The notes: generated by a model from the sequence alone, not told the origin. A stretch of 64,000 bases of DNA from Polynucleobacter sp. (GCA_044225315.1 JBGAIU010000009.1:672-64671), one strand, 5' to 3'. Shown: positions 30,866-55,112, numbered from the stretch's first letter. A program made the numbers and translations.

Positions 30866-32680
30866 GCAAACTCAAGGTGAAAGTGTTGACGTAAATACTG
30901 TTTAAAACGCTTCACGACGCTCAAGCTATCATTTAGAAGATCTCGTTCAAGAGTTGATAGTCGACTAAGCTCAATTTCGCCAGAGACTGCTTTGCCTGTT
31001 TTCAGTTCGGCTATACCACTTTTTAGTCGCAACTCCATTAAGAGATGCAAGGATTCAACAACCTCGTTCCCAAGATCCTGGGGAATCTTATGTATCACGC
31101 ACCCGTTCAGCCGTGGAGTTCGAGCGTATGTGATTTTCAAGGGCTAGGGAGCGAATACCATGGGTTATGGCGAAGATGCCCGCTTTTTTAAGATTGATAC
31201 GATTATCCGAGGTATCGCTGCCAAGGGTTAGTAAGCGATTCCACCAGCCAACTTCGGAGGTAAAGCTCTCGATTGCGGCAGCAAAACGCGCCATTAAAAA
31301 TTGATTATCTGTTGCTAATTTAAAGAGATTATGTTTCACACTTTCTAGAAGCGAAGAGTTACCGCTGATCGCATGAGAATCTAAAAAGATAGCTAAATTC
31401 ATGAGGCTATCTGGTGTGGGTTCAAGCAACCAATGCTTTGCAGTCTCAGTAAAGTCTTTTTCCGACATTCGCCAAGCTGGATTATTGACCATAATCTTAC
31501 CTGGGCATTCAGGGTAGCCAAATTGAATTAATGCGGCGGAAAATTGATCGCAACTACTTACCACCTCAGCATTGATTTCATAATCGTTGGCAATAATGAG
31601 GCCATTATCTTGGTCAGTTTTTAGAACTTGCTCGCCCCGACCTTCACTGCCCATCACAAAGAGACAGCTATTTTTCTGTAGTTCTGGACTTGCTATTAAT
31701 GACCAAGCTTTTTCAAAAAGTTTGGCATTTAGCTCTTGAACCAAACGGCCAATCATGGCGACTTTGGTGCCATTGCGGTGTAAAAGAGTAATGAGGTTTG
31801 TGATTTGATTGGCGGCTTCCTTCAAATCATCTAGCGTCTTAGCGCCAAGAATGCCCTGAACAACAAGTGATGAGCTATTGGCTATAAAACTTAATAGATC
31901 GACTTGCTCCAAGGTGCCTATTGGCTGCTCCTCGTTCATCACAATGACGCGATGAACAGAGTGGCGAATCATGATGGCCAATGCTTCATACAAATGATTT
32001 TTAGCCTCAACGGTAATGAGTTTGTAGTTGCTTAAAGGTCCTACCGGCGTTGAATCAAGGGGGAATTTAGCAAGTATGGCGCGTTGCAAACTTGTTGTTG
32101 TAAATATTCCTAATTCCTTATTGCTAACGTCACTACTGCGAACCAATACATTATTCGTCCTTTTGTCGTTGAAAATTTTCACAACATCAAACAAACTGGT
32201 ATCAAAGTCAACGATATAAATTTCTCTCAGAAAAGCCTCGCTTACTTGCGCAAGGCTAAGAGAATTAATTTCATATTGACTGTGTCTTTCGGCTAAAGCA
32301 TTGAGCTTTTTAGAAAGATCGGCAAATAGTAGGGCGCCAAATGTTGCATTGGTCGAGATGAGCTCAGTAACTGTCGACTTGGCTAATTGATAGCTAACCA
32401 CCTCTTCGGAGGCAATAAATTGGCTCGAAACTTTTCCAGCAATGAGTCCACGTCCATCAAAGCAGTCATCAGGGCCATAAGTCGCAACTTCCTCGTCATT
32501 CTCAAGTTGCTGCACATATCCTTTAATGGGAATAAATAAGTGGGTTGGTATTGAACCCACATCTAGAATAATTTCACCTTCTCTGAAGTAGGCGATATCG
32601 ACGCTATTTCGAACTAGATCCTGCTCTTGGCTGTTCAGGCAATCGAAAGAGGATGCTGAGAAATTAAAAGCATTAGGCAT
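30862..32680 (-). pseudogene. cNMP-binding/CBS/DUF294 putative nucleotidyltransferase, frameshifted near 31097
   Basis: MGSEGRGEQ and INLKKAG motifs; main frame stops at TAERVRDT* (31088) while the C-terminus HKIPQDLGNE...LSTLERDLL continues in another frame to 30862. Confidence 0.85.
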
Positions 32681-32785: not shown

Positions 32786-34120
32786 TTATTGGGCAACTGC
32801 CTCTTGAATCATGCCGGCTGCAACTGTGTGATTGGTAGCTTCATCGATCAATACAAAAGCCCCAGTGCGCTGAGATTGATCAAACAAGTCGGCAACAATT
32901 GGTTTTTGCAAAATGAAATCCACTCTTCCAATTTCATTGGTGGATAAGGCATGAACATCACTCGCATGCGATAGGGTTTGAACATCCAATACTTGCTGAA
33001 TATTCTTTACCTTTGCGCCAACAGTATTGGTAGTGTGACGTAAAGCATATTTACGACTCAGAGATAAAGGCTCGGTATCTAGCCAGCAAAGATCTGCTGA
33101 GAGTTGCTTACTCAATACTGGAGGATTACGGTCTTCAGTGCTGATAAATAAGGAGCCGCGCGACACATCGATGTCTTCGGCTAATTGAATGGCAACTGCT
33201 TCGCCAGTTTGAGCTGAATCTACGGCATTGCTGCCCTTGCTATCAGAGCCATTGCCTAAGTAAATTTCAGCAACAGTAGCTTCAGAGCCGCTTGGTAGCA
33301 CGGTAATTTTTTGACCTTTGCGAATGCTGCCTGACTCAATCTCGCCGAGGTAGCCACGGAAGTCATCAGAAGCACTGCCATCTTGACGCGCAACGTATTG
33401 AACGGGGAAGCGTAAAGCGAGCTTCTCAGATTCTGGGCTGGTATCTAAGCTTTCCAACAACTCCAAGAGAGTAGGGCCTTGGTACCAAGGGGTATTCTTA
33501 CTTGGGGTAACGACATTGGCGCCTAGTAGAGCTGAGATCGGAATTAATGTTGGCTTGGGTAGACCAATTTTTTCCGCGAGATCATCAATCGCAACTTTAA
33601 TGGTGTTGAATACTTTTTCATCAAATTCAAACAAGTCCATTTTGTTGATAGCAAACACCACATGGCGTAAGCCGAGCAAATGAACAATTGCTGCGTGACG
33701 TTTTGTCTGGGCCAATAAAGTTGCAGGGCTGGTATTAAGGTCTACGCGAGTGGCATCAACGAGAATCACTGCAACATCAGATTGAGATGCTCCAGTCACT
33801 AAGTTACGAGTGTATTGCTCATGACCAGGCGCATCAGCCACAATAAATTTACGCTTAGGGGTTGCGAAGTAGCGGTAAGCAACGTCAATCGTGATACCTT
33901 GCTCACGCTCAGCCTCTAAGCCATCGGTTAGAAGGGCTAAATCTACGCCAGCGTCTGAGGATGTTACACGGGCATGCTTTGTTTTAGAGAGAGACTCAAG
34001 TTGGTCAACCAGAATAGACTTGGTGTCATAAAGCAAGCGACCAATTAAGGTGCTCTTGCCGTCATTTACGCTACCTGCGGTAATAAAGCGAACCACATTT
34101 TGATGTTGATTGGTTGTCAT
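32786..34120 (-). CDS. cysN: sulfate adenylyltransferase subunit 1
   Basis: AEREQGITIDVAYRYF, DAPGHEQYTRN, NKMD; P-loop reads GSVNDGKS instead of GSVDDGKS. Confidence 0.95.
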   Translation of the reverse strand: MTTNQHQNVVRFITAGSVNDGKSTLIGRLLYDTKSILVDQLESLSKTKHARVTSSDAGVDLALLTDGLEAEREQGITIDVAYRYFATPKRKFIVADAPGHEQYTRNLVTGASQSDVAVILVDATRVDLNTSPATLLAQTKRHAAIVHLLGLRHVVFAINKMDLFEFDEKVFNTIKVAIDDLAEKIGLPKPTLIPISALLGANVVTPSKNTPWYQGPTLLELLESLDTSPESEKLALRFPVQYVARQDGSASDDFRGYLGEIESGSIRKGQKITVLPSGSEATVAEIYLGNGSDSKGSNAVDSAQTGEAVAIQLAEDIDVSRGSLFISTEDRNPPVLSKQLSADLCWLDTEPLSLSRKYALRHTTNTVGAKVKNIQQVLDVQTLSHASDVHALSTNEIGRVDFILQKPIVADLFDQSQRTGAFVLIDEATNHTVAAGMIQEAVAQ

Positions 34121-35043
34121 CAGAAGTAACCTTCTTTCTTACGGCGCTCCATTGAGGCCTCATTTGTTTGGTCATCCATGCGAGTTGCGCCACGTTCAGT
34201 GATTTCTGTAATGGCGGTTTCAGCAATGATGTCTAGCGGGTTAGCAGCGGAGCTCAGAACAGGGCAGGTGCAGCTGATGTCGCCAACAGTACGGAAACGA
34301 ACGCTAAGAATCTCGCTAATATCACCTGGCGCTTTAGGTGTCACATCGGTAACTGGTACAAGAAGATTATTTTTCTTCACCACTTCACGTTGATGGGTGT
34401 AATAGATGCTAGGTAAGGCTAGATTTTCACGGGCAATGTATTGCCAAACATCAAGCTCTGTCCAGTTTGAAATCGGGAACACGCGCATGTTTTCGCCTTT
34501 GACGATGCGGGCGTTATAGAGCTTCCAGAGTTCAGGGCGTTGGGCTTTGGGATCCCATTGGCCAAATTCGTCGCGGAAGGAGAAGATGCGTTCTTTAGCC
34601 CTTGCCTTTTCTTCATCGCGGCGTGCGCCACCCATCAGAGCATCGAATTCATATTTAGCGATTGTTTCTAGTAGGGTAACTGCCTGAGCGGCATTGCGAG
34701 AGTCCGTCTCTTTACGTAAGCGAACAGTACCTTTTTTAATAGAATCCTCTACATGACCAACGATGAGTTTAACGCCGGTGTTTTTAACAACATCGTCGCG
34801 ATATTGAATTACTTCAGGATAGTTATGTCCTGTATCAATGTGCAAAATCGGAAACGGTAACTTAACAGGACGATCGCCAAATTGGAATGCCTTACGAGCT
34901 AGGTGGAACATCACAATCGAATCTTTTCCGCCCGAAAACAGCATTGCGGGATTAGAGCACTGTGCTACCACCTCACGAATGATGTAGATGGACTCAGCTT
35001 CGAGCCAATCTAGGTGATCATCAAGTAATTTTTGTTCTGACAT
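34120..35043 (-). CDS. cysD: sulfate adenylyltransferase subunit 2
   Basis: LFSGGKDS, HIDTGHN, GGARRDEEKARAKER. Confidence 0.97.
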   Translation of the reverse strand: MSEQKLLDDHLDWLEAESIYIIREVVAQCSNPAMLFSGGKDSIVMFHLARKAFQFGDRPVKLPFPILHIDTGHNYPEVIQYRDDVVKNTGVKLIVGHVEDSIKKGTVRLRKETDSRNAAQAVTLLETIAKYEFDALMGGARRDEEKARAKERIFSFRDEFGQWDPKAQRPELWKLYNARIVKGENMRVFPISNWTELDVWQYIARENLALPSIYYTHQREVVKKNNLLVPVTDVTPKAPGDISEILSVRFRTVGDISCTCPVLSSAANPLDIIAETAITEITERGATRMDDQTNEASMERRKKEGYF

Positions 35044-35089
35044 TCTGTAAATTTCTTTTTGTTTCTACTAAGTTTTAATAATCAATACG

Positions 35090-35845
35090 TTATTTGTTGA
35101 CGTGCAGTCCACATTCTTTGCTATCGCTTTGCAGCCACCACCAGCGTCCAGCGCGGATGCCTTCGCCTTGCTTTACTTGGCGGGTACAAGGCTCGCAGCC
35201 AATACTGGGATAGCCCTTGAGGTGTAGTGGATGAATGGGAACATTTTCTTGTTTGATGTAAGCCCAGATATCAGCCTCACTCCAATCAAACAGGGGGTTA
35301 AATTTAGCAATACCTCTTGCGTCATCTAACTCTTCAAAATTCAGTTCAGTGCGAGTGGTTGATTGTTCACGACGTTGACCAGTAATCCAAGCATCTGCAC
35401 CTTGTAATGCGGCGTTCAAAGGTTTGATTTTGCGCGCGCCGCAGCAAGCTTTCTTGGGCTCTTCACCATCGTAAAAACCATTCATGCCATATTGATCGAT
35501 GAAGGCTTGAACATCGTTTTCTTGGGGGTAGACTTTTTCAATCGACACCCCGTAATGATCTTCGGTAGTCTTCACCATGTCGACAGTCTCTTGATGAAGA
35601 CGGCCTGTGGCTAAAGTAAAAAGCTTGATATTGGCTTTTGCTTTCTGAATGGCATCAGTGACCACCATATCTTCAGCGGCAAGACTCGTAGCAAAGCGAA
35701 CGTCTGAAAAGCGCTTGGCTATTTCAGCCAGACGTTCTTTTAAAACAGTGGACTTTTGTGCAAGTTCGGCTGAGCTTAGGGTGCTAGCCGGAATAGACCA
35801 AAAAGTGGGTTTTTCGAGGGTGGATGATAGATTTTGCTGGGTCAT
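35090..35845 (-). CDS. cysH: APS/PAPS reductase (Fe-S type motifs)
   Basis: CC motif (ACCGARK), YPSIGCEPCT, RAGRWWW, KECGLH. Confidence 0.93.
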   Translation of the reverse strand: MTQQNLSSTLEKPTFWSIPASTLSSAELAQKSTVLKERLAEIAKRFSDVRFATSLAAEDMVVTDAIQKAKANIKLFTLATGRLHQETVDMVKTTEDHYGVSIEKVYPQENDVQAFIDQYGMNGFYDGEEPKKACCGARKIKPLNAALQGADAWITGQRREQSTTRTELNFEELDDARGIAKFNPLFDWSEADIWAYIKQENVPIHPLHLKGYPSIGCEPCTRQVKQGEGIRAGRWWWLQSDSKECGLHVNK

Positions 35846-35983: not shown

Positions 35984-36925
35984 TTAGTCCAAATCTACGT
36001 CAGATTCAGGTTTAAGAGCGGCCTTTATCTTGGCTTCATCCAGCTTGGAAGAGCATAACTCTATGAATTCATAGGCAAAACCGCGCAAGAAGTAGCCTTT
36101 TCTGAGGGCTATGCGGGTTGTATTGTCTTCAAAGAGGCTGCCGATATCGAGGAGGCTGAGCTTGGTATCGCGCTCAGCTTGATATGCCATAGAGGCAATA
36201 ATGCCAATTCCCAGGCCAAGCTCAACATAAGTTTTAATCACGTCAGCATCCAGTGCGGACATAACGATATCTGGGGTGATGCCAGCCTTAGCAAAAGTTT
36301 CATCTACTGATTTTCTTCCGGTAAAGCCTTCGTGATAAGTCACGATTGGATATTTAGCGATTTCCTCAAGAGTTAAATTTGTCTTCCCTTCAAGAGGGTG
36401 CCCTTTAGGAACCACTACAGTGTGGTGCCAGGAGTAATAAGAGAAGGTAACTAATTCCGGAATTCCTTCCAGAGCCTCTGTTGCAATACCAATATCAGCT
36501 CGACCCTCAAGTAATAGCTCAACAATTTCTTGTGGGCTACCTTGATGCAAGGCTAAATGAACCTTAGGAAACTTCTTCTTAAATTGACTAACTACATTTG
36601 GTAATGCATAGCGTGCTTGAGTATGAGTAGTAGCAATGGTCAACTGACCTTTATCAGTCTGACTAAACTGCGCCCCAAGTTGTTTAATATTTTTAGTGTC
36701 AAGCAAAATACGCTCAACAATCGTGAGCAGCTCCTTCCCAGGCTCGGTCAAACCAAGAAGACGCTTGCCTTTGCGGACGAATAGCTCAACACCCAGTTCA
36801 TCCTCTAAATCGAGAATATGCTTACTAACGCCTGATTGGGAGGTCGCTAAAGCATTGCCAACTTCAGTGAGGTTGAAGTTGCGACGGACAGTTTCGCGGA
36901 TGATGCGGAGTTGTTGAAAGTTCAT
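35984..36925 (-). CDS. cysB: CysB/Cbl-family LysR regulator
   Basis: MNFQQLRII, SQSGVSKHI, ATTHTQARYALP, DADVIKTYVELGLG; CysB versus Cbl/SsuR not resolved. Confidence 0.9.
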   Translation of the reverse strand: MNFQQLRIIRETVRRNFNLTEVGNALATSQSGVSKHILDLEDELGVELFVRKGKRLLGLTEPGKELLTIVERILLDTKNIKQLGAQFSQTDKGQLTIATTHTQARYALPNVVSQFKKKFPKVHLALHQGSPQEIVELLLEGRADIGIATEALEGIPELVTFSYYSWHHTVVVPKGHPLEGKTNLTLEEIAKYPIVTYHEGFTGRKSVDETFAKAGITPDIVMSALDADVIKTYVELGLGIGIIASMAYQAERDTKLSLLDIGSLFEDNTTRIALRKGYFLRGFAYEFIELCSSKLDEAKIKAALKPESDVDLD

Positions 36926-36953
36926 AATATTTTTTCTAATAAAAACCGAAGTT

Positions 36954-38045
36954 CTATTGCTTTGGCGGGTTTTCAAATACCCTCAATTGGGATGGAACAA
37001 TACGAACCTGTTGACCTTCGGTTAATTTCCGACTTGCTACCTCAGCTCGTGGAAGTTCTACCTCATAGTACTGTTGAGCATGTGAACCATCTTCAGAAGA
37101 AATGGCTGATAGTTCAACGCGTGCGTTTAGTCCAAATGAAAGAATGCGATCAATTTTTGCAAGTACACCATTTGTACTTTCGCTATCAACGACGATGTCT
37201 AATTCATGGGGGCGAGCAAAAGCTAAGACTGATGTGCCTTGGCTGATTGAGCTCGATTGATCATGTTTGAGCTTGCCACTTCCAACGGTAATATCTTGGC
37301 CATCAACACGACCATGAAACAAGTTCACATTTCCTAAAAAGCTATTCACAAACGGTGTTGCCGGATGGTCATACACTTCATCAGGGCTTCCTACTTGTTC
37401 AACAGCGCCCTGGTTCATCAAAATAACGTGATCAGCAACTTCAAGAGCCTCCTCTTGATCATGCGTCACAAAGATAGATGTGATGTGAAGCTCGTCATGA
37501 AGCGTTCTGAGCCAACGACGCAATTCTTTGCGCACCTTAGCGTCTAGAGCACCAAAGGGTTCATCTAAAAGCAGAATTTTTGGCTGAACGGCTAATGCTC
37601 TTGCGAGGGCGATACGTTGACGTTGTCCCCCTGATAATTGTGCAGGAAAGCGATCGTGCAGCCAATCAAGTTGAACAAGCTTTAGTAGTTCGTGAACGTT
37701 ATGGGCGATTTCTTCTTTGCTTGGACGTTCTTTACGATTCTTTACCTGAAGGCCAAAAGCAACGTTGTCAAATACTGTCATGTACTTAAACAAGGCGTAG
37801 TGCTGAAATACAAAGCCAACATGACGATCTCTTACTGAAGTATCCGCAGTATCAACACCATCCAGAATAATATTGCCGCTATCTGGAGTTTCAAGGCCGG
37901 CAATGATGCGAAGTAATGTGGTTTTACCGCAGCCAGAAGGGCCAAGAAGTGCTACAAGCTCTCCAGTAGGAAAATCCAATGAAACATTGTTTAAGGCAAC
38001 AAAGTTTCCAAAAGTTTTATTAATATTTCTGACTTCAATACTCAT
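36954..38045 (-). CDS. cysA: sulfate ABC transporter ATP-binding protein
   Basis: [24 protein letters not shown]. Confidence 0.96.
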
Positions 38046-41629: not shown

Positions 41630-41783
41630 GGTGAATTGCGGATGACTATATAACTCACCACTGCAATTTGGAATCAAGAAAAAATGCTAACGATATTTAG
41701 GAATGCTTATCTGTAATTCTTGGTTCTCACGTTGACGGTTTAGTCATAAATTTCATTTGTTTATTCATTTATGCAAATGGCTT

Positions 41784-42689
41784 ATGTCTCACCATTCAAT
41801 TTCTAGCGCCTTAAACCTTTCTCAAGTGGTTAGCGATTTGCGCCGCTCAAGAGAAGAAACGCACAAGATTCGTCATTTGGACAGGGTACGAGAGCTTCCA
41901 TCCAGAGAAGCTTTAGAGAAAATTTTAGAGGGCTTATTTGCTGCATTATTTCCAACCCACTATGGTCGCGCCGATCTGACGGATGAGAGTATTGATTACT
42001 TTGTGGGTAATGTTCTAAGTGTGGTCCTGAATTCCTTGACCGAACAAATTCGTCGTGGTCTTTATTTCTCTTCCGATAGTAATTTAGAGAAAGAGGAAAA
42101 ATTTGACGCTTTATCAGAAACATTAGCGAGTCAATTTGCTAGCGAGCTTCCTGCAATTCGAGCATTAATCGTTAGTGATATACGTGCGGCAATGAGTGGC
42201 GATCCAGCTGCCACTAGCGTTTCTGAGATTCTCTTGTGCTATCCAGGTGTTAGCGCAGTGATTCATTACCGAATTGCTCATGCCCTATATGAATTAGGCG
42301 CGCCGCTATTAGCCCGATTTATTTCTGAGATTGCTCACTCTCGCACAGGTGTGGATATTCACCCTGGCGCGAAGATCGGAGAGGGCTTTTTCATTGATCA
42401 TGGCACTGGCGTAGTGATTGGTCAGACGGCCATTTTGGGTAAGAACATTCGTCTATATCAAGCAGTTACTTTGGGCGCAAAACGGTTCCCAGAAGATGAT
42501 GAAGGCAATCTGATTAAGGGGGCAGATCGGCACCCAATTTTGGAAGATGACGTTGTTATTTATGCGGGTGCAACAGTACTTGGGCGAATCACGATTGGCG
42601 CGCGATCGACCATAGGCGGCAATGTGTGGCTTACAAAGAGTGTTCCCCCGGATAGCAATATTTCTCAGGCTCAAACACTTGGGCACTAA
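41784..42689 (+). CDS. cysE: serine O-acetyltransferase (EpsC/CysE type)
   Basis: GDPAA, GVDIHPGAKIG, FFIDHGTGVVIG, RHPILEDDVVIYAGATVLG. Confidence 0.94.
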   Translation: MSHHSISSALNLSQVVSDLRRSREETHKIRHLDRVRELPSREALEKILEGLFAALFPTHYGRADLTDESIDYFVGNVLSVVLNSLTEQIRRGLYFSSDSNLEKEEKFDALSETLASQFASELPAIRALIVSDIRAAMSGDPAATSVSEILLCYPGVSAVIHYRIAHALYELGAPLLARFISEIAHSRTGVDIHPGAKIGEGFFIDHGTGVVIGQTAILGKNIRLYQAVTLGAKRFPEDDEGNLIKGADRHPILEDDVVIYAGATVLGRITIGARSTIGGNVWLTKSVPPDSNISQAQTLGH

Positions 42690-42744
42690 GCAATAAAGAA
42701 ACAATTTTTTACTTATTTTTTAAACAACAACCAAAGGAGTAGTT

Positions 42745-43665
42745 ATGGCAGAAGTAATTCAAAGTCCAACAGCGTTAGGAGATTTGGCCGCACGGCAGTT
42801 AGCAAACGCTACGAAAACAGTACCTCAGTTATCAACAATTACCCCGCGTTGGTTAACTCAACTTTTGGGTTGGGTTCCTGTTGAGGCAGGTATTTATCGT
42901 CTAAATCGAGTAATTAACCCATCTGAAGTATTAACAGACTGTTCAAGTCGTGATAACGAGCGTGTATTGCCACAAACATTTGTGGACTATGATGCTAAGC
43001 CACGCGAATATTTCTTGAGTGCTGTTAATACAGTATTAGATGTTCATACCCGTATTTCAGATCTATACAGCAGTCCATACAATCAAATTAGCGAGCAGTT
43101 GCGTTTAACTATCGAAACTGTCAAAGAGCGTCAAGAAGGTGAATTAATTAATAACGCTGAGTATGGCTTACTTGCAAGCGTTGCGCCTGATCAACGTATC
43201 AAAACTCGTACTGGCGCACCAACACCAGATGATTTGGATGAGTTGTTGACTAAAGTTTGGAAAGAGCCTGGTTTCTTCTTGGCCCATCCTAAGACAATCG
43301 CTGCATTTGGTCGTGAATGTACTCGTCGCGGCGTTCCTCCTCCAACAGTTAGACTCTTTGGCAGTCAATTTTTGACATGGCGTGGCGTTCCATTGATTCC
43401 ATCAGACAAAGTCAAGATTCAGGATGGTAAATCTTCAATCCTATTGATTCGTAGCGGTGAGAAAAAGCAAGGCGTGGTTGGCTTGTATCAACCTAATTTG
43501 CCAGGTGAGCAAAGCCCAGGCCTCTTAGTTCGTTTCATGGGGATTAATAACAAAGCAATCGCTTCTTATTTGGTTTCTTTGTATTGCTCTTTGGCAGTAC
43601 TGACTGATGATGCGCTTGCAGTGTTAGATGGCGTTGAGATTGGCAAATACCATGAGTACAAGTAA
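42745..43665 (+). CDS. family 2A encapsulin nanocompartment shell protein (SrpI-like)
   Basis: ARQLANATKTVPQLSTITPRWL, WVPVEAGIYRLNRV, PTPDDLDELL, ECTRRGVPPP, YLVSLYCSLAVL; 306 aa. Confidence 0.95.
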   Translation: MAEVIQSPTALGDLAARQLANATKTVPQLSTITPRWLTQLLGWVPVEAGIYRLNRVINPSEVLTDCSSRDNERVLPQTFVDYDAKPREYFLSAVNTVLDVHTRISDLYSSPYNQISEQLRLTIETVKERQEGELINNAEYGLLASVAPDQRIKTRTGAPTPDDLDELLTKVWKEPGFFLAHPKTIAAFGRECTRRGVPPPTVRLFGSQFLTWRGVPLIPSDKVKIQDGKSSILLIRSGEKKQGVVGLYQPNLPGEQSPGLLVRFMGINNKAIASYLVSLYCSLAVLTDDALAVLDGVEIGKYHEYK

Positions 43666-45418
43666 TCCAGTGCAAACTGGGCAACTCGATCCTCAGATCT
43701 TGGCGGATTTGGCAAATCAGAATTTCTCTGATTTTCAACACCAGCCAAGTGGTTTGGGTGATCCACGCGGCAATTTGCCCAGTGGTGTCGCTAGCCATTC
43801 CTTTCAGCCTAATGCCTCTCTAGATTTGGCGACCATTGCTCAGCAAGCATTGAGTAGTTTGCAGCAACAGAGTGGTAATGAGTCATTTGCAGGGCATCCA
43901 AGCTCCTTGGGTTTGGGTGATCCACGCGGCAATTTGCCAAGTGGAGTGGCTAGTCCTTCGATTCAGCCACCTAGCTCTCTCGATGTGAACTTGGTACCGC
44001 AGCAAGCCCTCGGTGGGGCTCAACAGCAAGCTGGTCATGATGCGCTCGCAAAAGACCCAAGCTCTTTATCTCTTGGTAAGAGTTTTGGTTTTGAGCAATT
44101 CATTGGCAACTCGTTATTAAGCGACTTATCCAATCCAACCAATAATCCATTGGTGAATCAGATATTCCTTAATGAGGTACCTGCTGTTAAGAGCCAGAAC
44201 ACTGCGCTTGACCCATTATTGGTTCGAAAAGATTTCCCAATCCTTTCAGAGCGAGTCAATGGTCGTCAGTTAATCTGGTTTGATAATGCTGCTACTACAC
44301 AAAAGCCACAGGCTGTGATTGATCGCATCAGCTATTTTTATGAGCACGAGAATTCCAATATTCACCGTGCTGCCCATGAATTAGCTGCGCGCGCAACCGA
44401 TGCCTATGAAGGTGCTCGTGAAAAGGTAAGGGCATTCCTCAATGCTAAATCTGTTAACGAGATCGTCTTTGTGCGCGGTACGACCGAGGCAATTAACTTG
44501 GTATCACAGAGTTGGGGGCGTCAAAACCTCAAAGAGGGCGATGAGATCATTTTTAGCAATCTTGAGCATCATGCCAATATCGTTCCATGGCAGTTGTTAG
44601 CCAAAGAAAAGAGATTGCGTCTCCGCGTGATACCTGTGAATGACGATGGAGAGCTCTTGTTGGATGAGTATCAAAAGCTCTTCAATGCTCGCACTAAGCT
44701 GGTAAGTTTTACTCATGTCTCAAATGCTTTGGGTACGATTACCCCAGCTAAGAAGATCATTGAGATTGCTCACGCAGCTGGCGTGAAAGTATTGTTAGAC
44801 GGTGCACAGTCTATCTCTCATATGAAGGTTGATCTTCAAGATCTGAATCCTGACTGGTTTGTATTCTCTGGACACAAGGTATTTGGCCCTACTGGTATTG
44901 GCGCTCTCTATGGCAAGGAAGATTTGCTCAATGCAACTCAACCATGGCAAGGTGGCGGCAATATGATTCAGGATGTGACCTTTGAGCACACTAAGTTTTA
45001 TGATGCTCCAAGCCGTTTTGAAGCTGGGACTGGGAATATTGCTGATGCTGTTGGTCTTGGCGCTGCGTTGGATTATGTTAATTCCGTTGGGATTGATTTA
45101 ATTGATCAGTACGAGCATCAACTTCTCTTGTATGCAACACGCTTATTAAAAGAAGTCCCCGGCGTGCGGTTAATTGGTACAGCGAAGGATAAGGCTAGTG
45201 TTCTATCTTTTGTGATTCCAGGCATTAAGACCGAGGACATCGGTGCCGCTTTAAATAAAGAGGGTATCGCAGTACGATCTGGCCACCATTGTGCTCAGCC
45301 TATCTTGCGTCGTATGGGTGTAGAAACTACCGTAAGACCATCATTGGCTTTCTACAATACCTGTCAAGAGGTGGATAAGATGATTGCTGTATTGCATCGT
45401 ATTCGCTCTCAGCATTGA
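43652..45418 (+). CDS. family 2A encapsulin cargo cysteine desulfurase (SufS-type) with long N-terminal extension
   Basis: FDNAATTQKP, SGHKVFGPTG (PLP Lys), RSGHHCAQP (catalytic Cys); about 180-aa low-complexity N-terminus; ATG 43652 overlaps the shell stop. Confidence 0.93.
   Translation: MSTSNPVQTGQLDPQILADLANQNFSDFQHQPSGLGDPRGNLPSGVASHSFQPNASLDLATIAQQALSSLQQQSGNESFAGHPSSLGLGDPRGNLPSGVASPSIQPPSSLDVNLVPQQALGGAQQQAGHDALAKDPSSLSLGKSFGFEQFIGNSLLSDLSNPTNNPLVNQIFLNEVPAVKSQNTALDPLLVRKDFPILSERVNGRQLIWFDNAATTQKPQAVIDRISYFYEHENSNIHRAAHELAARATDAYEGAREKVRAFLNAKSVNEIVFVRGTTEAINLVSQSWGRQNLKEGDEIIFSNLEHHANIVPWQLLAKEKRLRLRVIPVNDDGELLLDEYQKLFNARTKLVSFTHVSNALGTITPAKKIIEIAHAAGVKVLLDGAQSISHMKVDLQDLNPDWFVFSGHKVFGPTGIGALYGKEDLLNATQPWQGGGNMIQDVTFEHTKFYDAPSRFEAGTGNIADAVGLGAALDYVNSVGIDLIDQYEHQLLLYATRLLKEVPGVRLIGTAKDKASVLSFVIPGIKTEDIGAALNKEGIAVRSGHHCAQPILRRMGVETTVRPSLAFYNTCQEVDKMIAVLHRIRSQH
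43751..44068 (+). repeat. 2 x 159-bp (53-aa) tandem repeat in the desulfurase N-terminal extension
   Basis: Units 43751-43909 and 43910-44068 both begin GLGDPRGNLPSGVAS and end PSSL; first 44 nt 41/44 identical. Confidence 0.92.
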
Positions 45419-45444: not shown

Positions 45445-45475
45445 AAAAAAAGGGCCACTGTGAAGTGGCCTTTTT
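45445..45475. terminator. bidirectional terminator after the encapsulin operon
   Basis: A-tract, GGCCACT-GTGA-AGTGGCC, T tract. Confidence 0.8.
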
Positions 45476-45489
45476 GTAGCTATATTTAT

Positions 45490-45654
45490 TTATGCGAAAG
45501 AGTCTTCAAATTCGGCATACTTAATTGTATTCATCAAAAATAGAATGCGGCGCTGGAAGTTCTTACGCTCTTCAATTTGATCGTGGGGAAGTTGATCGTG
45601 CTCACGCAGTAATTTAGTAATTACAGAGTTATAAAGCTCTCTAACGGGTGACAT
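45490..45654 (-). CDS. small hypothetical protein (54 aa, absent from ORF track)
   Basis: MSPVRELYNSVITKLLREHDQLPHDQIEERKNFQRRILFLMNTIKYAEFEDSFA*; AGGA just upstream; ends at a terminator. Confidence 0.65.
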   Translation of the reverse strand: MSPVRELYNSVITKLLREHDQLPHDQIEERKNFQRRILFLMNTIKYAEFEDSFA

Positions 45655-47615: not shown

Positions 47616-47719
47616 GCTGTATGTCTCTGTATAGATTTGAAATTGCTTTGCTTATTTAACTTAGCAAAGCAAAAAATCTTGGTTTACGAAATTCTCCTAA
47701 TGCTCAATACTGAGTTTTC

Positions 47720-48220
47720 TTTAGTCAAAAGGAGAATTAAATTGAGTACCTCTATTAAGCACGCCAAATTAAATAATTCATTGAATGTAGTCGCCAGGGT
47801 TTTATTGGCATCACTATTTCTCACATCAGGTATTTCCAAAGTAACAAATTTTCAAGTGATAAGTGACTTGGTCGCGTCTGTTGGCATTCCATATGCTGGA
47901 GCTTGGACAGCCTTAGTGATTGTTTTAGAAATCTTAGGATCTCTTGCCATTATTTTTGGGTATCAAGCCAGAATTGCGGCTGCACTCTTAGGTTTTTTCT
48001 CAATCATCGCGGCATTTCTTTTTCACAACTATTGGGGCGCACCTGCTGATCAGCAATACATACAACAGCTTCTTTTCTATAAAAATCTGAGTATTGCAGG
48101 AGGTTTATTTTTGCTTTCATCATTTGATTCAGGCAAATGGTCTGTTGATCATCGCTTGCAAGTGAAGGCCAATCATCAATCTTTAAATCAATCTGCTGTT
48201 GCAGGTTAATTTAGTCAAAA
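47720..48220 (+). repeat. 11-bp direct repeat TTTAGTCAAAA (47720-47730, 48210-48220) flanking the DoxX gene
   Basis: Read directly from sequence; each copy precedes a GGAGAATT RBS. Confidence 0.7.
47742..48209 (+). CDS. DoxX family membrane protein
   Basis: ARVLLASLFLTSGISK, FYKNLSIAGG, GKWSVD; TTG start after GGAGA. Confidence 0.88.
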   Translation: MSTSIKHAKLNNSLNVVARVLLASLFLTSGISKVTNFQVISDLVASVGIPYAGAWTALVIVLEILGSLAIIFGYQARIAAALLGFFSIIAAFLFHNYWGAPADQQYIQQLLFYKNLSIAGGLFLLSSFDSGKWSVDHRLQVKANHQSLNQSAVAG

Positions 48221-48239
48221 TTTTATAAGGGGAGAATTT

Positions 48240-48512
48240 ATGAGTAGAGCTGAATTGGTTGAAAAGATATTAAAGGATGCTGATATTACAAAAGCGCTTT
48301 CAGAAACAATTCTGAATTCCATTTTGCACAACATTACTAAAGTGGTGACAAAGGGTAACAGCGTTCAATTGATTGGATTTGGAACCTTTAGTTCAGGAAA
48401 GAGGGCTGCAAGAGTAGGTCGCAATCCGAAAACAGGTGAAGCTATACAAATTCCTGCAGCTAAGACTGTGAAATTTACTGCGGGCAAGGCATTTAAGGAT
48501 GCAGTTAATTGA
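48240..48512 (+). CDS. HU family DNA-binding protein
   Basis: [33 protein letters not shown]. Confidence 0.93.
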
Positions 48513-48623
48513 CGTAAATCTTAATTAAGAAAAAGAAGAAAGGGTGCTTTATGTTGCCTCGCCCTGATTTGAGGGTGAGGCAATAGATATTTCCGACTAA
48601 TAAATTTGTTAAAAAGCTTTTTC

Positions 48624-49479
48624 TTAGCCAAAGGTAATGCGATGAAGTAAGCGATGTTGATTACCATAATCATTCGCAGCATAGTGAACAGTTGCACGGT
48701 TATCCCAGATGGCAACCGTGTTCCTCTCCCAACGTAATCGGGCTTGAAACTCTGGTCTTTGGAACTGGGCAAATATGAAAGTTAGAAGGGCATCACTTTG
48801 TTGGCGCGACAACCCTTTAATGCGGTCCGTGAAATTAGGATTTACATAAATGATTTTTTCCTGTTACAGGGTGAACGCGTACTACAGGATGAACTACTGG
48901 TAGGTTCTCTGCACGGGCTTGGCGATAGACTTCCTCGCCATTTTCGAGTTTGGAAAAATAATTAGGCCAACCACTATGCTCAAAGCTATGTGTTGCCTCC
49001 AGGGTTTCTAAATAGGTTTGCAAATGGCTCGGAAGCGATTCATATACAGCGGTAGCGCTGGCCCAGAGAGTATCTCCACCTGAGGTTGGAATGATATGAG
49101 AGTAAAGAACAGTTCTAGTAGGCGGGTTTTGAGAGAAGGTAATGTCAGCATGCCATTGGTCAGTTCCATAGCGATGGCCAGATGGCTTGGCTTCAATTAC
49201 TTCAATGAGTTTGTGATCACCCAGTCTTGGGAAGAAAGCTTTTGTTTTATTAGGATCCCCAAATACTTTGGCAACCTCAACCTGCTGGTCTGGAGTGAGT
49301 TTTTGGTCGCGGAAAAATAGCACTTGGAATTCAGAGAGGGCTTTACGTAGCTCATCTCGAACAGGCTCGGAATCTAATTTGGACAGATCTAAGTCGTAAA
49401 TAGTGGCGCCAATATTGGGCGTATAGGGCTCAATGGATAGATGGGCATAACCTGGCACTGCATATTCAATTTTTGACAT
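48624..49479 (-). pseudogene. tauD: TauD/TfdA dioxygenase frameshifted in an A-run at 48854-48859
   Basis: WHADITF, HPVVRVHP; adding one A restores TGKKIIYVNPNFT...IWDNRATVHYA...HRITFG*. Confidence 0.9.
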
Positions 49480-49732
49480 CTCATGACCCTTTTTCTTGAT
49501 TTAGTACGAAAGGGGAGATTAAGTACTGCATTCGAAGTTGTGAAGAATGAAATTCTGATTTGCTTATCTATAAAAGCGATATTTGCTTCTAATCGCTTTG
49601 TTTAGCGCTGGAAACGCCTTTATCAAAAATTAAGCTAAGCAACTCAGAAAGTATTGGTTCTTTTGCAGAATCTCTTTTCCTAGAATGACAAATCCAATCT
49701 CTTGCGCGCATTGCGCCTATTTCAGAAGGTAG

Positions 49733-50713
49733 ATGATGAATTTCGGTAAACTAAGAATGCTATTGGTAACTTTTAAGACGCTTGTGCTTTCAAGCGCTTT
49801 GGTGTTTTCTTCTGCCCAAGCGGATAACCCAAATACTTTAAGAATTGGTTATCAAAAATCATCAAGTATTCTGACTTTACTTAAGGCGGATGGCTCTTTT
49901 GAGAAGCAGCTTGGATTTAAGGGGGTGGATGTCAAGTGGGTTGAGTTTCCTGCAGGTCCACAGTTGCTAGAGGGTCTCAATGTCGGCTCTATTGATTTTG
50001 GTTATGTAGGCGAGGCTCCTCCGATATTTGCTCAGGCTGCTGGAGCAAGCTTCGTATATGTTGGTTATCAAACTCCGGCACCTAAAGCTGAAGCAATTCT
50101 GGTGCCAAAGGATTTGCCAATTAAGAAAGTTTCCGATCTAAAGGGTAAAAAGGTTGCCCTCAACAAGGGTTCAAATGTTCACTATTTGTTAATTAAAGTA
50201 TTAGAAAAGCACGGCCTGAAATATTCTGATGTGCAGCCCGTATTTCTCGCGCCCGCAGACGCACGAGCAGCTTTTGAAAAGGGGAGTGTAGACGCTTGGG
50301 CAATTTGGGATCCATTCCAAGCAGCCGCAGAAATTCAAATTGGCGCTAAGGAACTCGCTAATGGAGTTGGCACAGTAAATAACGTAAATTACTTCCTAGC
50401 TTCACGGCCTTACGCAGAAAAAAATCCAGCAGTCATTAAAGCGCTATTTGCCGCAATTTCCGAGCAAGGCGCTTGGATTACCAAGAATAAAAAGGCAGCT
50501 GCAGAAGCGCTCGCCCCAATTCAAGGCCTTACTCCAGATGTCATTGAACTGAGCATTAGTCGATATCACAACGATATCTTGCCGATTAACAGCAAAATAT
50601 TGGCCGATCAACAAAAGGTCGCTGATGTTTTCTATGAACTGAAGCTAATTCCGCAACCAATTGCCGTTAAAGATGCAGTTTTTCAACTGAAAAGGCTAAA
50701 TAATGTTTGCTAG
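49733..50713 (+). CDS. ssuA: aliphatic sulfonate ABC transporter substrate-binding protein (copy 1)
   Basis: RIGYQK, EFPAGPQLLEGL, KGSNVH, AIWDPF. Confidence 0.92.
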   Translation: MMNFGKLRMLLVTFKTLVLSSALVFSSAQADNPNTLRIGYQKSSSILTLLKADGSFEKQLGFKGVDVKWVEFPAGPQLLEGLNVGSIDFGYVGEAPPIFAQAAGASFVYVGYQTPAPKAEAILVPKDLPIKKVSDLKGKKVALNKGSNVHYLLIKVLEKHGLKYSDVQPVFLAPADARAAFEKGSVDAWAIWDPFQAAAEIQIGAKELANGVGTVNNVNYFLASRPYAEKNPAVIKALFAAISEQGAWITKNKKAAAEALAPIQGLTPDVIELSISRYHNDILPINSKILADQQKVADVFYELKLIPQPIAVKDAVFQLKRLNNVC

Positions 50714-51689
50714 CTTAATTCGGTTTTGGTTTTGCGTACTAGCGATCATTGGTAGCCACTTATTTGGGGTAAATGTCCATGCGGCAGTCTCGGATGCAGA
50801 TAAGACCCCAGCTCAAATTCGCATTGGTTTTCAAAAGAGTGCTATTAATTTGATTTTGCTAAAACAACGCGGAACGCTTGATGCGCTATTTCCGAATAGT
50901 AAAGTCACATGGACAGAGTTCCCTGCAGGCCCTCAATTATTAGAAGCCTTATCAGTTGGCAGTATTGATTTTGGATTGACCGGAGATGCGCCACCTGTAT
51001 TTGCGCAATCAGCTGGCAAAGATGTGATTTATGTAGGTGCTGAACCACCAAAACCAAAAAGTTCCGCAATCTTGGTGCCCGCTAACTCGAGTATTAAAAC
51101 TCTTAAAGATTTAAAAGGAAAGAGAATTGCATTTCAAAAGGGCTCATCCTCACACAATCTTCTGGTTCGAGCTCTAAAGAAAGCAGGTTTATCCTGGAGC
51201 GACATTGAGGCAGCATATTTACCGCCTGCCGAAGGCCGTGCTGCATTTGAGAAGGGAAGCGTGGATGCATGGGTGATTTGGGATCCATACTATGCCGCCG
51301 CAGAATTATCTTCTTCTAAACCGAGAGTTCTAGCAACTGGTGAGGGTTTATCAGATAACAACTCTTTTTACCTAAGTTCATCTGCGTTTAATCAAAACTA
51401 TCCCGATACAGTCAAAAAGCTACTCATCGCGTTGACTGAGGCAGATCAATATATATCTGCCAATAAAAAGGAATCTGCACTTGCTTACTCAAGTTATAGC
51501 GGTCTCCCCTTAGATGTGGTTTATCGCTTTGTTGATAGAAGACCACTTGCACCAACCACCCCTTTAAGTCCCAAAACGGTCGCAGAGCAACAGCGTGTAG
51601 CTGATGCATTCTTTCAGTTGGGCTTAATCCCTAAACCAATCGTTGTTAGTGATGTTGTAGCAAAGCCTACGAATCCTAAAGTTAAATAA
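50703..51689 (+). CDS. ssuA: aliphatic sulfonate ABC transporter substrate-binding protein (copy 2)
   Basis: RIGFQK, EFPAGPQLLEAL, KGSSSH, VIWDPY. Confidence 0.92.
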   Translation: MFASLIRFWFCVLAIIGSHLFGVNVHAAVSDADKTPAQIRIGFQKSAINLILLKQRGTLDALFPNSKVTWTEFPAGPQLLEALSVGSIDFGLTGDAPPVFAQSAGKDVIYVGAEPPKPKSSAILVPANSSIKTLKDLKGKRIAFQKGSSSHNLLVRALKKAGLSWSDIEAAYLPPAEGRAAFEKGSVDAWVIWDPYYAAAELSSSKPRVLATGEGLSDNNSFYLSSSAFNQNYPDTVKKLLIALTEADQYISANKKESALAYSSYSGLPLDVVYRFVDRRPLAPTTPLSPKTVAEQQRVADAFFQLGLIPKPIVVSDVVAKPTNPKVK

Positions 51690-51707
51690 CGTTAAGAACT
51701 TTAGCGA

Positions 51708-52499
51708 GTGCAATATATGAGTTCTGAAAAGCTAGATAAAGCAACAAAAGCCATCGTTCCATGGCTAACGCCAGTGATTTTGATCGCTATATGGCAGTGG
51801 GCAGCTCAGGCCGGGTATTTATCAACACGTATCCTGCCTTCGCCTTTGGCTATTGGCCTTGCATTTGTCAAATTATCTAGTTCAGGTGAACTGTGGTTGC
51901 ATGTAAAGACGAGTACATGGCGGGCGTTGTCGGGGTTTGCTATTGGCGGTGGTTTGGGTCTGATATTGGGACTCATCACCGGTTCATTTAAAAGAGCAGA
52001 AGTTCTTTTGGACACCACCTTGCAAATGATTCGCAATATCCCTCCCTTGGCATTAATTCCTTTAGTCATTCTTTGGTTCGGAATTGATGAGGTGGCAAAG
52101 TTATTTTTAGTGTCGGTCGGGGTATTTTTTCCGGTCTATGTAAACACCTTCCATGGCATTCGGAACGTTGATCCGGGCTTAATTGAAATGGCAAAAAGTT
52201 ATGGGCTCAAAGGTTTCGCATTGTATTGGAATGTGATTTTGCCCGGGGCTTTGCCTTCTATTTTGGTGGGTGTTCGTTTTTCACTGGAATTAATGTGGGT
52301 CTTATTAATTGTGGCCGAAACCATTTCCGCTCAATCTGGAATTGGCTACATGACCATGAATGCCCGTGAATTTTTACAGACCGATATCGTGTTGGTTGGT
52401 ATTTTGGTTTACGCCCTACTAGGAAAGTTAGCCGATGTTCTAGCAAAAGGTTTGGAGCGCTATTGGCTCCGTTGGCACCCTGGTTATCAGTCGGCTTGA
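51708..52499 (+). CDS. ssuC: aliphatic sulfonate ABC transporter permease
   Basis: MIRNIPPLALIPL, AETISAQSGIGYM. Confidence 0.95.
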   Translation: MQYMSSEKLDKATKAIVPWLTPVILIAIWQWAAQAGYLSTRILPSPLAIGLAFVKLSSSGELWLHVKTSTWRALSGFAIGGGLGLILGLITGSFKRAEVLLDTTLQMIRNIPPLALIPLVILWFGIDEVAKLFLVSVGVFFPVYVNTFHGIRNVDPGLIEMAKSYGLKGFALYWNVILPGALPSILVGVRFSLELMWVLLIVAETISAQSGIGYMTMNAREFLQTDIVLVGILVYALLGKLADVLAKGLERYWLRWHPGYQSA

Positions 52500-52508
52500 G
52501 TTGGTCTT

Positions 52509-53288
52509 ATGAAAAATCATTCCAAAGAATTAGAGGAAATTAAGAAAGTGGAAGGGATAGTCGCATCCAAGGCGGGCGTTTCTATTACTCTTCAAGAGTT
52601 GAAAAAGAATTATGGAGACCGTCAGGTACTCCGTGGACTCGATCTTGAAATTGAGCCAGGTGAATTCGTAGCGATAGTTGGGCGTAGCGGATGCGGTAAG
52701 AGTACTTTGTTGCGGCTTGTTGCAGGTTTAGAAAAGGCTAGCGCTGGCGAGCTCTATCTTGATTATGTATATCTATCGAGCAACTCTGATACTCGGATTA
52801 TGTTTCAAGAGGCGCGCCTGCTTCCTTGGAAAAAGGTGCTGCAGAATGTTGCCATTGGTCTAACGTCAGGAATATTACATCGAGCCCAAGAAGTTTTGGC
52901 AGCAGTTGGATTGGCAGACTGGGGTGATGAGTGGCCAGCCAGGCTTTCGGGCGGTCAAAAGCAGCGGGTAGCTCTTGCGAGGGCTTTGGTCCATAAGCCA
53001 AAACTACTATTGCTTGACGAGCCCTTAGGTGCCCTAGATGCGCTGACGCGCATTGAAATGCATCAATTAATTGAGTCCTTGTGGATTAAGAACGGCTTTA
53101 CAGCTTTGCTAGTTACGCACGATGTTTCAGAGGCAATTGCATTAGCTGACCGCATTCTCTTAATTGAGGATGGATCAATCGCATTAAATATAAAAGTCGA
53201 TTTGCCAAGACTAAGACAGCGCGCATCGCAAAAATTTATCGAAATAGAAGAAAAGTTATTAGGCCAATTGTTGGGCAGCTCTAATTAA
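52509..53288 (+). CDS. ssuB: aliphatic sulfonate ABC transporter ATP-binding protein
   Basis: [29 protein letters not shown]. Confidence 0.94.
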
Positions 53289-53300
53289 AGGAACGAAAGA

Positions 53301-54368
53301 ATGAGTTTTTATCGTGATTACAACGACAAGTTAGCTTTTGAGGCGTGGAATACAAGGAGTCATCCAACGTTCAGCACTCTACAGGTTGAGCCTATCGCGA
53401 GAGCGGGTGGCGCCAAGATTTCTGGTGTCGATTTGTCTAAAGAGTTGAGCGCGGAACAATTTGCAGAAATCAAAAAGGCTTTGGCTGAGTATCAGGTTCT
53501 GGTATTTCGGGATCAAAATATCAGCTCTGAACAGCATAAAAAGTTTGGTTTGAAGTTTGGCTCGCTACACCGCCACGTCAGTGCCGCTATTAGAGCCCCT
53601 GGTGGTGATCCAGAAATTCTGGCGTGGAAGACGGGTAAGAATAGTCGCTTTACCGCAGGCGAGGTTTGGCATAGCGATGTGTCTTGCGATGAAAATCCTA
53701 TTACTGAATCAATTTTGCGAGTGACAAAACTCCCTGAAGGTGGCGGTGGCGATACTGCATTTATCAATACGCATCTTGCTTTTGAATCTTTATCTGAGCC
53801 CTTGAAAAACTTTATATTGGGTTTAAGTGCGGAGCATTCTGGCCAAGAAGGTTGGACAAACGGTTATGGGGAAGAGCCTGCTCCTGGTCAAAAATTCGCT
53901 AGCTCTATTCACCCCGTAGTAATTACTCATCCTGTGACAGATCGTAAGCATGTATTTGTTAACCGAGGATTCACAACAAAAATTATCGAATTGGTTCGAA
54001 ACGAGAGCAATGCAATCCTCGAATTACTGAACCGCCATATTGAAACCAGCCAAGCATTCCAATTTCGTGTTCAGTGGGAGCCTAATACTGTAGTAATTTG
54101 GGATAACTGGGCTGTTCAGCATCAAGCAATTTGGGATTACTACCCCTTTAATCGCTGGGGTAAGCGTGTATCTGCGGTTGCGGGAATTCGCCCATCACAA
54201 GGCGAGACAAATAAAGCGACTTCAGAAAAGCCTGTTTTAGAGCTTGCCCAGCCTCCGATGTGGAGGCACGGTATTTGTTGCGCAGAAGAAGAATATGGTG
54301 CCGCAGATCTCAATAGGGGCTCTTCTGACTTAATCAAACTTGAGGGGGCGCCATACGCCTCCCCTTGA
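53301..54368 (+). CDS. TauD/TfdA dioxygenase (second copy) with apparent C-terminal run-on
   Basis: WHSDVS, HPVVITHP, IWDNWAVQH; last ~55 aa overlap the EAL gene. Confidence 0.85.
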   Translation: MSFYRDYNDKLAFEAWNTRSHPTFSTLQVEPIARAGGAKISGVDLSKELSAEQFAEIKKALAEYQVLVFRDQNISSEQHKKFGLKFGSLHRHVSAAIRAPGGDPEILAWKTGKNSRFTAGEVWHSDVSCDENPITESILRVTKLPEGGGGDTAFINTHLAFESLSEPLKNFILGLSAEHSGQEGWTNGYGEEPAPGQKFASSIHPVVITHPVTDRKHVFVNRGFTTKIIELVRNESNAILELLNRHIETSQAFQFRVQWEPNTVVIWDNWAVQHQAIWDYYPFNRWGKRVSAVAGIRPSQGETNKATSEKPVLELAQPPMWRHGICCAEEEYGAADLNRGSSDLIKLEGAPYASP

Positions 54369-55099
54369 ACTAGAAGATTGTCTTCCTTGTTAGTCTTTTT
54401 ATGGTCGTTGATTTTAGTGATGACTATATTCGCACCATTTTGAACCGTTACTAATTGCTCCAGTTTTTGATTTAGATCGCTACTAATAAACTGATCCGCA
54501 ATCTTGATGTATTTGATCTCCGCTCTATCTAGAGAGGCATCTATATCTTCAATGGAGTCGATATTGATTGCGACCTCAAGCGAATTTAAACGGTAGTTTT
54601 GTAATACAAAGTGAAGACGTTTCTTATCCTTAACCAAAGAGATTGGTAATTCAATGACGATGCGGCTGGGGGAGAATCCCAGAGCATCTATGACTTTTCT
54701 AAATGACGATCCATGGTTGTCATCCACTGCTGAAATTAGTCCTTCATGAACATTTAAAAACAGCAACGCATTATCTATGCCTTGTAGTGAAAAATTGAGT
54801 AAATGAATGGTGCGGCAAAGACGATCTAAGCTGGTGATATCGTCATGTTCTACTAATTTCGAAAATAGATCCCTAGGTTTAATTTGGTTCCCATAGGCGT
54901 CTGAACAGCGAACAAAAGCCTCATAAGCTACGGGCTTAATAAGGTCGGTCGATCTGTAGATTGGTTGAAAAACGCTAGATAAAACCAGGTTTTGCTATTT
55001 AGCACTAATTACGCCCGCCTCATTTAAAAAAAGAGATCGGTTGGTGCTGCTACCTCTCAGACCATCGACAAAAAGTCTGGTTTTGCTTGGAACTCTCAT
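54140..55099 (-). pseudogene. stand-alone EAL-domain protein with in-frame TAG at 54995-54997
   Basis: Hand translation from ATG 55099: ...GVISAK*QNLVLSSVFQPIY...AYEAFVR...LFLNVH...IVIE. Confidence 0.78.
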
Positions 55100-55112
55100 T
55101 GATTGGAATTGT

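Follow-up and report, generated by a model that had tools for sequence, protein, structure and literature searches.

A probable family 2A cysteine desulfurase encapsulin operon in a sulfur-assimilation cluster of Polynucleobacter sp.

We analyzed a 64,000-nt stretch of Polynucleobacter sp. DNA (GCA_044225315.1 JBGAIU010000009.1:672-64671, hereafter the window), for which an earlier reading made without database searches (the sequence-only reading) had proposed a sulfur nanocompartment operon at positions 41784-45418. The three genes found there encode a serine O-acetyltransferase (AT), an encapsulin shell protein (Enc) and a cysteine desulfurase (CD) predicted to be the cargo of the shell, and the locus is very probably a canonical family 2A desulfurase encapsulin operon of the AT-Enc-CD type. 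Judged by its sequence, it has every testable feature of family 2A except for a YYFL motif in the cargo that is frequent in these systems and not universal. Which genes are present, the family of each product by curated models, the catalytic residues, synteny with other loci and purifying selection were all established by the analysis. The features of the operon, with their strand and supporting evidence, are as follows (PLP, pyridoxal 5'-phosphate).

41678-41783 (+), upstream intergenic region between a divergent serine hydrolase gene and the AT gene; partly conserved across loci
41784-42689 (+), AT gene, starting with ATG, encoding a long-form serine O-acetyltransferase of 301 aa; profile and structure matches
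42734-42739 (+), Shine-Dalgarno sequence AAGGAG of the shell gene, 5 nt before the ATG; read from the sequence
42745-43665 (+), family 2A encapsulin shell gene, 306 aa, HK97-fold family, no cNMP-binding domain; curated profile
43652-45418 (+), cargo cysteine desulfurase gene, 588 aa, start overlapping the shell stop codon by 14 nt; curated profile
43652-44224 (+), N-terminal cargo-loading domain, approximately residues 1-191; outside Aminotran_5, rich in S, L, Q, P and G, predicted to be disordered
43700-43729 (+), loading motif 1, LADLANQNFS, residues 17-26; counterpart of LARLANEFFS in the cargo of SrpI
43751-43909 (+), unit 1 of a 53-aa tandem duplication (GLGDPRGNLPSGVAS...QQAL...); direct repeat, 159-nt period
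43910-44068 (+), unit 2 of the same duplication; direct repeat, 159-nt period
44225-45415 (+), PLP-dependent class-V aminotransferase / SufS-type catalytic domain; PF00266, 1e-144
44876-44878 (+), codon of the PLP-binding Lys409 (FSGHK); motif and alignment
45290-45292 (+), codon of the catalytic Cys547 (GHHCAQP); motif and alignment
45453-45475 (both strands), bidirectional intrinsic terminator; 7-bp GC-rich stem, GTGA loop, T-run on the 3' side and A-run on the 5' side

The product of the middle gene matches the NCBIfam model NF041162 (encap_f2a) with 527 bits against a cut-off of 380 (E-value: 1e-158) and the Pfam family PF19307 (SrpI-like) with an E-value of 1e-106. The sequence-only reading had described a 306-aa shell and had proposed that its identity be checked against the family 2A profile, a mismatch counting against it; positions 42745-43665 do encode 306 aa, and the profile is matched well above its cut-off. 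Over approximately 299 residues, the protein is 76.6% identical to the shell of Acinetobacter baumannii (8T6R) and 74.8% identical to SrpI of Synechococcus elongatus (6X8M), and identities of 75-77% to structures solved by cryo-electron microscopy are enough to establish the HK97-type fold. Residues F262 and Y273 of SrpI, which are reported to lie next to cargo density (PMC8049743), are conserved in the window shell as F264 and Y275. The family 2B model is matched only over its positions 216-449, the shell part of that model, so the window protein is without a cNMP-binding domain, and a Pfam scan of the shell found no cNMP_binding match. Among the matches listed, the closest species representative is P. 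victoriensis, whose shell is 91% identical.

The desulfurase encoded directly downstream passes the encapsulin cargo model NF041166 (f2_encap_cargo1) with 855 bits (cut-off 800, E-value: 4e-257). It also matches the SufS subfamily model with 553 bits, and its best match among solved structures is the mycobacterial desulfurase 8KG1 (1e-174), a chain consisting of the catalytic domain only. The earlier description of a SufS-type desulfurase with a PLP lysine and a catalytic cysteine is borne out by K409 and C547, both of which are invariant in an alignment of 32 sequences. The same reading had taken the enzyme to be dedicated cargo and had placed IscS at 22504. Passage of the curated cargo model and the presence of an N-terminal loading domain agree with the first proposal, and iscS was found at 22504-23763 inside a full isc operon.

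The 553-bit SufS match of the catalytic domain, taken with the HK97 fold that encapsulin shells and phage capsids have in common, would allow the locus to be read as a free SufS-type enzyme for Fe-S assembly lying beside an unrelated phage capsid remnant. SufS/SufE and CsdA/CsdE do belong to the same class II PLP desulfurases and use the same Lys and Cys as the window cargo. However, no SufE/CsdE acceptor, no sufBCD or sufE genes and no phage genes lie nearby, the cell has its full isc operon, and the window enzyme differs from SufS and CsdA in having an extra N-terminal loading domain and a paired shell gene. The cargo passes the encapsulin-cargo model, and solved encapsulins have 75-77% identity with the shell. 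In addition, we fetched the best 80 loci with the shell protein, and Enc is followed directly by CD in all of them with enough contig. The curated models, the matches to solved shells and this universal Enc-CD pairing effectively refute the phage-remnant reading, to which we give next to no probability.

The domain that precedes the catalytic part of the cargo is predicted to be disordered. In an AlphaFold2 model built on 32 homologues, the catalytic domain folds and residues 1-61 and 67-191 have a predicted local distance difference test (pLDDT) score below 50, low pLDDT being a proxy for disorder and not proof of it. Short helices are predicted at residues 14-26 and 59-71. The motif LADLANQNFS, also predicted to be helical, has 7 of 10 positions in common with LARLANEFFS of the SrpI cargo, and 68 of 76 related cargo N-terminal domains contain a motif of LAN..F type. 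Further along, a block of 53 aa is present twice in tandem. Between the units, 34 of 53 residues and 108 of 159 nt are the same (82% identity over the best-conserved 78 nt), and the self-alignment score of the loading domain is 195, compared with 37 ± 8 for shuffled sequences. This repeat, of 159-nt period, was detected by a seed-based repeat finder; Tandem Repeats Finder gave nothing in the loading domain. The duplication is common to a subclade of approximately 588-aa proteins that includes P. wuianus and is absent from the 534-536-aa proteins of P. tropicus type. It was considered as an exceptional feature and rejected as such, the window ranking only 9th of 76 loading domains by self-repeat score. 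As internal repeats are common in loading domains, the 53-aa duplication is lineage-specific variation and not an anomaly.

The three open reading frames (ORFs) are uninterrupted and co-oriented on the plus strand, as the sequence-only reading had stated. For two of the genes, the longest ORF begins upstream of the start that we adopt. The longest AT ORF begins at TTG 41757. For the cargo, the longest ORF begins at ATG 43628 and encodes 596 aa, the length also given in a database record (P0031), but homologues from Polynucleobacter and other Burkholderiales begin at a conserved MSTS/MSTN methionine; we therefore place the start at 43652, and the database start probably lies 8 codons too far upstream. 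The operon was also said to end at a terminator, and 35 nt past the cargo stop codon there is indeed a hairpin (GGCCACT-GTGA-AGTGGCC, 45453-45470) followed by TTTTTG. Because an A-run also flanks it, this predicted terminator can serve both directions and could terminate a convergent 54-aa gene as well. The 14-nt overlap between shell and cargo genes, the 55-nt gap between AT and shell genes and the single terminator fit one transcript, and transcription of all three genes together, from a start upstream of 41784, is most likely. The intergenic region at 41678-41783, which is largely conserved with a P. wuianus-like locus (L081) and partly with the P. victoriensis locus (L001), presumably holds the operon promoter and any binding site for a CysB-family regulator. 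Neither an Rfam scan nor a tRNA scan of the whole window gave any match.

The first gene had been called cysE. By family its product is indeed a serine acetyltransferase, though a different one from the canonical short CysE: the protein passes NF041874 (EpsC-type serine acetyltransferase; 167 bits, cut-off 150) and falls below the cut-off of TIGR01172 (cysE; 175 bits, cut-off 210). Its whole length can be aligned with the solved long-form serine acetyltransferase 3F1X (4e-87), and the database contains the exact 301-aa protein, clustered with entries from P. asymbioticus and P. wuianus under the name serine O-acetyltransferase EpsC.

A comparison of loci had been proposed as a further check, and L081 has a gene order identical to that of the window from cysN through dsbB. 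In P. victoriensis L001, the order hydrolase-AT-Enc-CD is kept and the cys transporter block lies on the opposite side. Across the best 80 loci, AT is directly upstream in Burkholderiales members and downstream in some Bacteroidota; 11-17 of 81 loci have homologues of Sbp, CysA and CysB no more than 10 kb from the shell gene. P. victoriensis was the only member of the genus among the best 80, and the idea that the operon is rare in Polynucleobacter was rejected following a cluster look-up and homologue search. These place orthologues in P. necessarius, P. tropicus, P. asymbioticus, P. wuianus and many metagenome-assembled genomes, so that at least five named species retain the operon. The exact window sequence is present in a bioreactor metagenome run, and related sequences are found in freshwater, groundwater and wastewater metagenomes.

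Because pseudogenes occur nearby, we computed the selection acting on the operon. Relative to L081, the shell has a ratio of non-synonymous to synonymous substitution rates (dN/dS) of 0.018, compared with 0.023 in the catalytic domain and 0.115 in the loading domain; for AT, dN is 0.086 and dS is saturated. By this sequence measure, the operon is under strong purifying selection. Decay or loss of function, as in several neighboring genes of this streamlined genome, might otherwise be supposed for the operon, as genuine tauD and cysK-like pseudogenes lie nearby with lesions seen in independent metagenomes, and several other genes in the window are split. We regard this as very improbable given three intact ORFs, invariant catalytic residues, dN/dS values of 0.018-0.115, retention in at least five named Polynucleobacter species and RNA-derived contigs that match the shell gene. 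A functional family 2A operon is preferred.

The surroundings of the operon are listed below.

21906-27313 (+), isc operon iscR-iscS-iscU-hscB-hscA-fdx; profile scans
32786-35845 (-), cysN, cysD and cysH; profile scans
35984-36976 (-), CysB-family LysR regulator; NF009327, 458 bits
36954-40923 (-), sulfate ABC transporter genes cysA, cysW, cysT and sbp; CysA 424 bits, Sbp 548 bits
40967-41677 (-), serine hydrolase PF06821 (RBBP9/YdeN-like), divergent from the operon; Pfam match
45490-45654 (-), small conserved ORF of 54 aa; conserved in L081
45849-46121 (+), small conserved ORF of 90 aa; conserved in L081
46190-48512 (mixed strands), fpr, dsbB, doxX and HU; profile scans
48590-49479 (-), tauD pseudogene; frameshift
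49733-53288 (+), ssuA, ssuA, ssuC and ssuB; profile scans
53301-54368 (+), TauD-family dioxygenase; profile scans
55113-56099 (-), second sbp/cysP; profile scans

With cysHDN, a CysB-family regulator, cysAWT-sbp, ssuAACB, tauD-like genes and a second sbp/cysP around it, the operon does lie in a sulfur cluster as had been claimed, and "sulfur-assimilation cluster" is a fair name for the region. The same reading had noted that the operon contains no rhodanese gene. None was found among its ORFs, among the 46 window ORFs scanned (a few short ORFs fell outside the scan) or among ten sampled neighbors of related operons, which were NlpA, SDR, EAL, HATPase, HTH, DUF4395, patatin or without a family. 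A published census counts 1462 family 2A desulfurase operons in 11 phyla and describes four operon organizations, AT-Enc-CD among them, with about half of the operons having no rhodanese. The order found here, AT-Enc-CD without rhodanese, is one of these four, and the missing rhodanese is ordinary because about half of known operons also do without one.

By analogy with characterized systems, we infer assembly, encapsulation, sulfur deposition and regulation in the window organism along the following lines. The 306-aa shell protein would self-assemble into a 60-subunit, T=1 icosahedral shell of approximately 24 nm, and the desulfurase would be tethered inside it by its disordered N-terminal domain of approximately 190 aa, with short motifs (at least LADLANQNFS) docking on conserved hydrophobic patches of the inner shell surface. 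L-cysteine would enter via the shell pores and be converted by the PLP enzyme (Lys409, Cys547) to L-alanine and a persulfide. In the A. baumannii system, sulfur accumulates in the shell as elemental sulfur (PMC10836720). AT would make O-acetylserine, the direct precursor of cysteine, and because the operon sits among cys and ssu genes, it is probably part of a CysB-controlled response to sulfur limitation.

Several points weigh against a canonical family 2A system with this role, beginning with the fact that its support in the window organism comes from sequence. The cargo has no counterpart of the second published loading motif, AASPYYFLDG: the pattern [YF][YF]F[LIQ] does not occur in the window N-terminal domain, and cargo loading may for this reason use fewer or different contacts. 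A YYF[LI]-type motif is also absent from the 30-odd closest database relatives, whereas elsewhere it is present in 61 of 76 loci; in the Polynucleobacter clade, G(R/K)SFGxEQFIPNSLL stands at the equivalent position. As AASPYYFLDG has been reported in "most" cargo proteins and is insufficient for loading by itself, the YYFL motif is frequent and not strictly defining for family 2A. On the side of regulation, a scan upstream of 41784 gave no clear match to the sigma-70 consensus, and no CysB site could be defined upstream of AT from a three-sequence alignment. As to expression, metatranscriptome contigs of 144-159 nt from two bioreactor runs (X21 and X22) are 99-100% identical to nt 42938-43255 of the shell gene; because the contigs are short and may reflect DNA carry-over, this evidence is weak and only hints that the shell gene is transcribed in situ. 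Finally, S. elongatus knockouts of SrpI and of its cargo CyD showed no growth phenotype under sulfur starvation (PMC8049743).

The last result bears on what the compartment is for. Nichols et al., who found no knockout growth phenotype, raise two options other than storage (PMC8049743): the same compartment could limit the desulfurase and so protect cytosolic cysteine, or, when sulfur is limiting or under redox stress, it could shield persulfide or polysulfide. The window operon is also without the rhodanese proposed to remobilize stored sulfur. On the other hand, about half of known operons likewise have no rhodanese, and the A. baumannii shell, 77% identical to that of the window, has been directly shown to deposit elemental sulfur (PMC10836720). 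We therefore consider a main role other than storage unlikely.

The system in itself is already known; structures have been solved, and cargo loading and sulfur deposition have been demonstrated elsewhere. The most similar characterized locus is that of A. baumannii 118362 (J517_0525-0528; Benisch, Andreas and Giessen, Sci Adv 2024, PMC10836720). Like the window, it encodes a SufS-type cargo with a long disordered N-terminal domain, has AT directly upstream of the shell gene and is tied to a sulfur-limitation response. In contrast to the four-gene A. baumannii type, the window has three genes without a rhodanese, and its loading domain is shorter (approximately 190 rather than 225 aa), is without a YYFL-type motif and carries the 53-aa tandem duplication. 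S. elongatus SrpI/CyD (6X8M, 6X8T; Nichols et al., eLife 2021, PMC8049743) comes, like the window, from a freshwater organism, and the window shares with it the conserved F262/Y273 pair of the shell and, as LADLANQNFS, the LARLANEFFS motif of the cargo. It differs in that srpI is plasmid-borne while the window locus is chromosomal and lies in the core cys cluster, and in that the window cargo is without AASPYYFLDG.

More distant systems are related through parts of the operon. The window shell matches the mycobacterial Major membrane protein I (MMP-I) shells (8WOL, 8WON and 9KSL; 7e-142), and the desulfurase 8KG1 is likewise mycobacterial, but the MMP-I systems belong to an actinobacterial lineage and their operon context is unlike that of the window. 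Family 2B encapsulins with terpene-cyclase cargo (9BJE, 9BHU and 9BIX) have a homologous shell core (8e-94 to 1.5e-87 over residues 66-300), but with an N-terminal cNMP-binding domain, a total length of 470-477 aa against 306 aa for the window shell, and another cargo. In P. necessarius and P. tropicus, orthologues with over 90% identity already bear the NCBI name "family 2A encapsulin nanocompartment shell protein", and several Polynucleobacter records give the cargo the corresponding name; the finding is for this reason ordinary in kind. No paper treating Polynucleobacter and encapsulins together was found in the literature searched, and Polynucleobacter gave no match in the searchable census supplement.

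The PF06821 hydrolase adjoins the operon in 3 of 3 Polynucleobacter loci and occurs in only 2 of the other 78 loci. Downstream, the 54-aa ORF encodes a soluble protein and the 90-aa ORF a predicted membrane protein, 89% and 66% identical, respectively, to their L081 counterparts; the 54-aa ORF is also found in P. victoriensis L001 (52% identity), at another position. Neither has a Pfam family, and the 90-aa ORF also has no NCBIfam family (the 54-aa ORF was scanned against Pfam only). L081 has a TauE-family gene between the 90-aa ORF and fpr that is not found in the window. Between dsbB and a cysK-like gene, the window (47637-56100) contains approximately 8.7 kb more than L081 (14724-14801). 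This extra segment comprises doxX, HU, the tauD pseudogene, ssuA-ssuA-ssuC-ssuB, the TauD-family dioxygenase and the second sbp/cysP, so the sulfonate-utilization module is accessory within the genus.

Two genes in this region carry inactivating lesions. In tauD (48590-49479, minus strand), a frameshift lies in an A-run at approximately 48848-48854: one frame reads …VTGKNHLCKS and then stops, and …EKIIYVNPNFTDRIKGL… carries on in the next. Contigs of two independent metagenome studies (X1, bioreactor; X2, freshwater) show no differences at this lesion. The cysK-like gene (56386-57339, plus strand), which encodes an O-acetylserine sulfhydrylase (PALP), has an in-frame TAA at 57070-57072 that replaces the conserved Gln of HKIQGIGAGF; the intact L081 orthologue is 323 aa, and an independent freshwater-metagenome contig is identical to the window across the stop. 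An assembly error was considered as the source of the split tauD and cysK-like genes and rejected; because independent contigs reproduce both lesions, they are real. Judged from these sequences, the lineage appears to have lost a copy of cysteine synthase near an operon that makes the substrate of that enzyme.

Pfam profile coverage suggests that the window contains further split or truncated genes. A major facilitator superfamily (MFS) transporter is split into two ORFs, a CoA-transferase begins at profile position 68, TctC spans 202 of 274 profile positions, and a DUF294 protein has its C-terminal domain cut short at position 70 of 145. These genes, which may reflect ongoing decay in a streamlined genome, are located as follows.

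7759-8991, 11420-11872, 12535-13290 and 31088-32680 (strand not given), split or truncated-looking genes; Pfam profile coverage

Within one Polynucleobacter subclade, the loading domain may have been remodelled, with the YYFL motif replaced and the 53-aa block duplicated, and it is conceivable, as a tentative proposal that we do not favor, that the duplication raises the number of shell contacts per cargo. The duplicated block carries two semi-conserved elements, G-LPSG-S-H and LD....QQAL. If these contact the shell, the duplication would add contacts and could alter the amount or arrangement of cargo, and the remodelling would be a natural experiment on how disordered domains tune encapsulation. 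Close relatives vary in having one or two repeat units and no YYFL motif, and they could be used to dissect cargo loading. Polynucleobacter is a cultivable and ecologically dominant freshwater group in which the physiological role of the compartment could be tested, and a clear hypothesis on regulation follows from the fixed position of the operon in a conserved cys cluster, beside a CysB-family regulator. If the reading is correct, a sulfur-storage compartment encoded in the core cys cluster of an abundant, streamlined freshwater bacterium could matter for the sulfur economy of sulfate-poor lakes.

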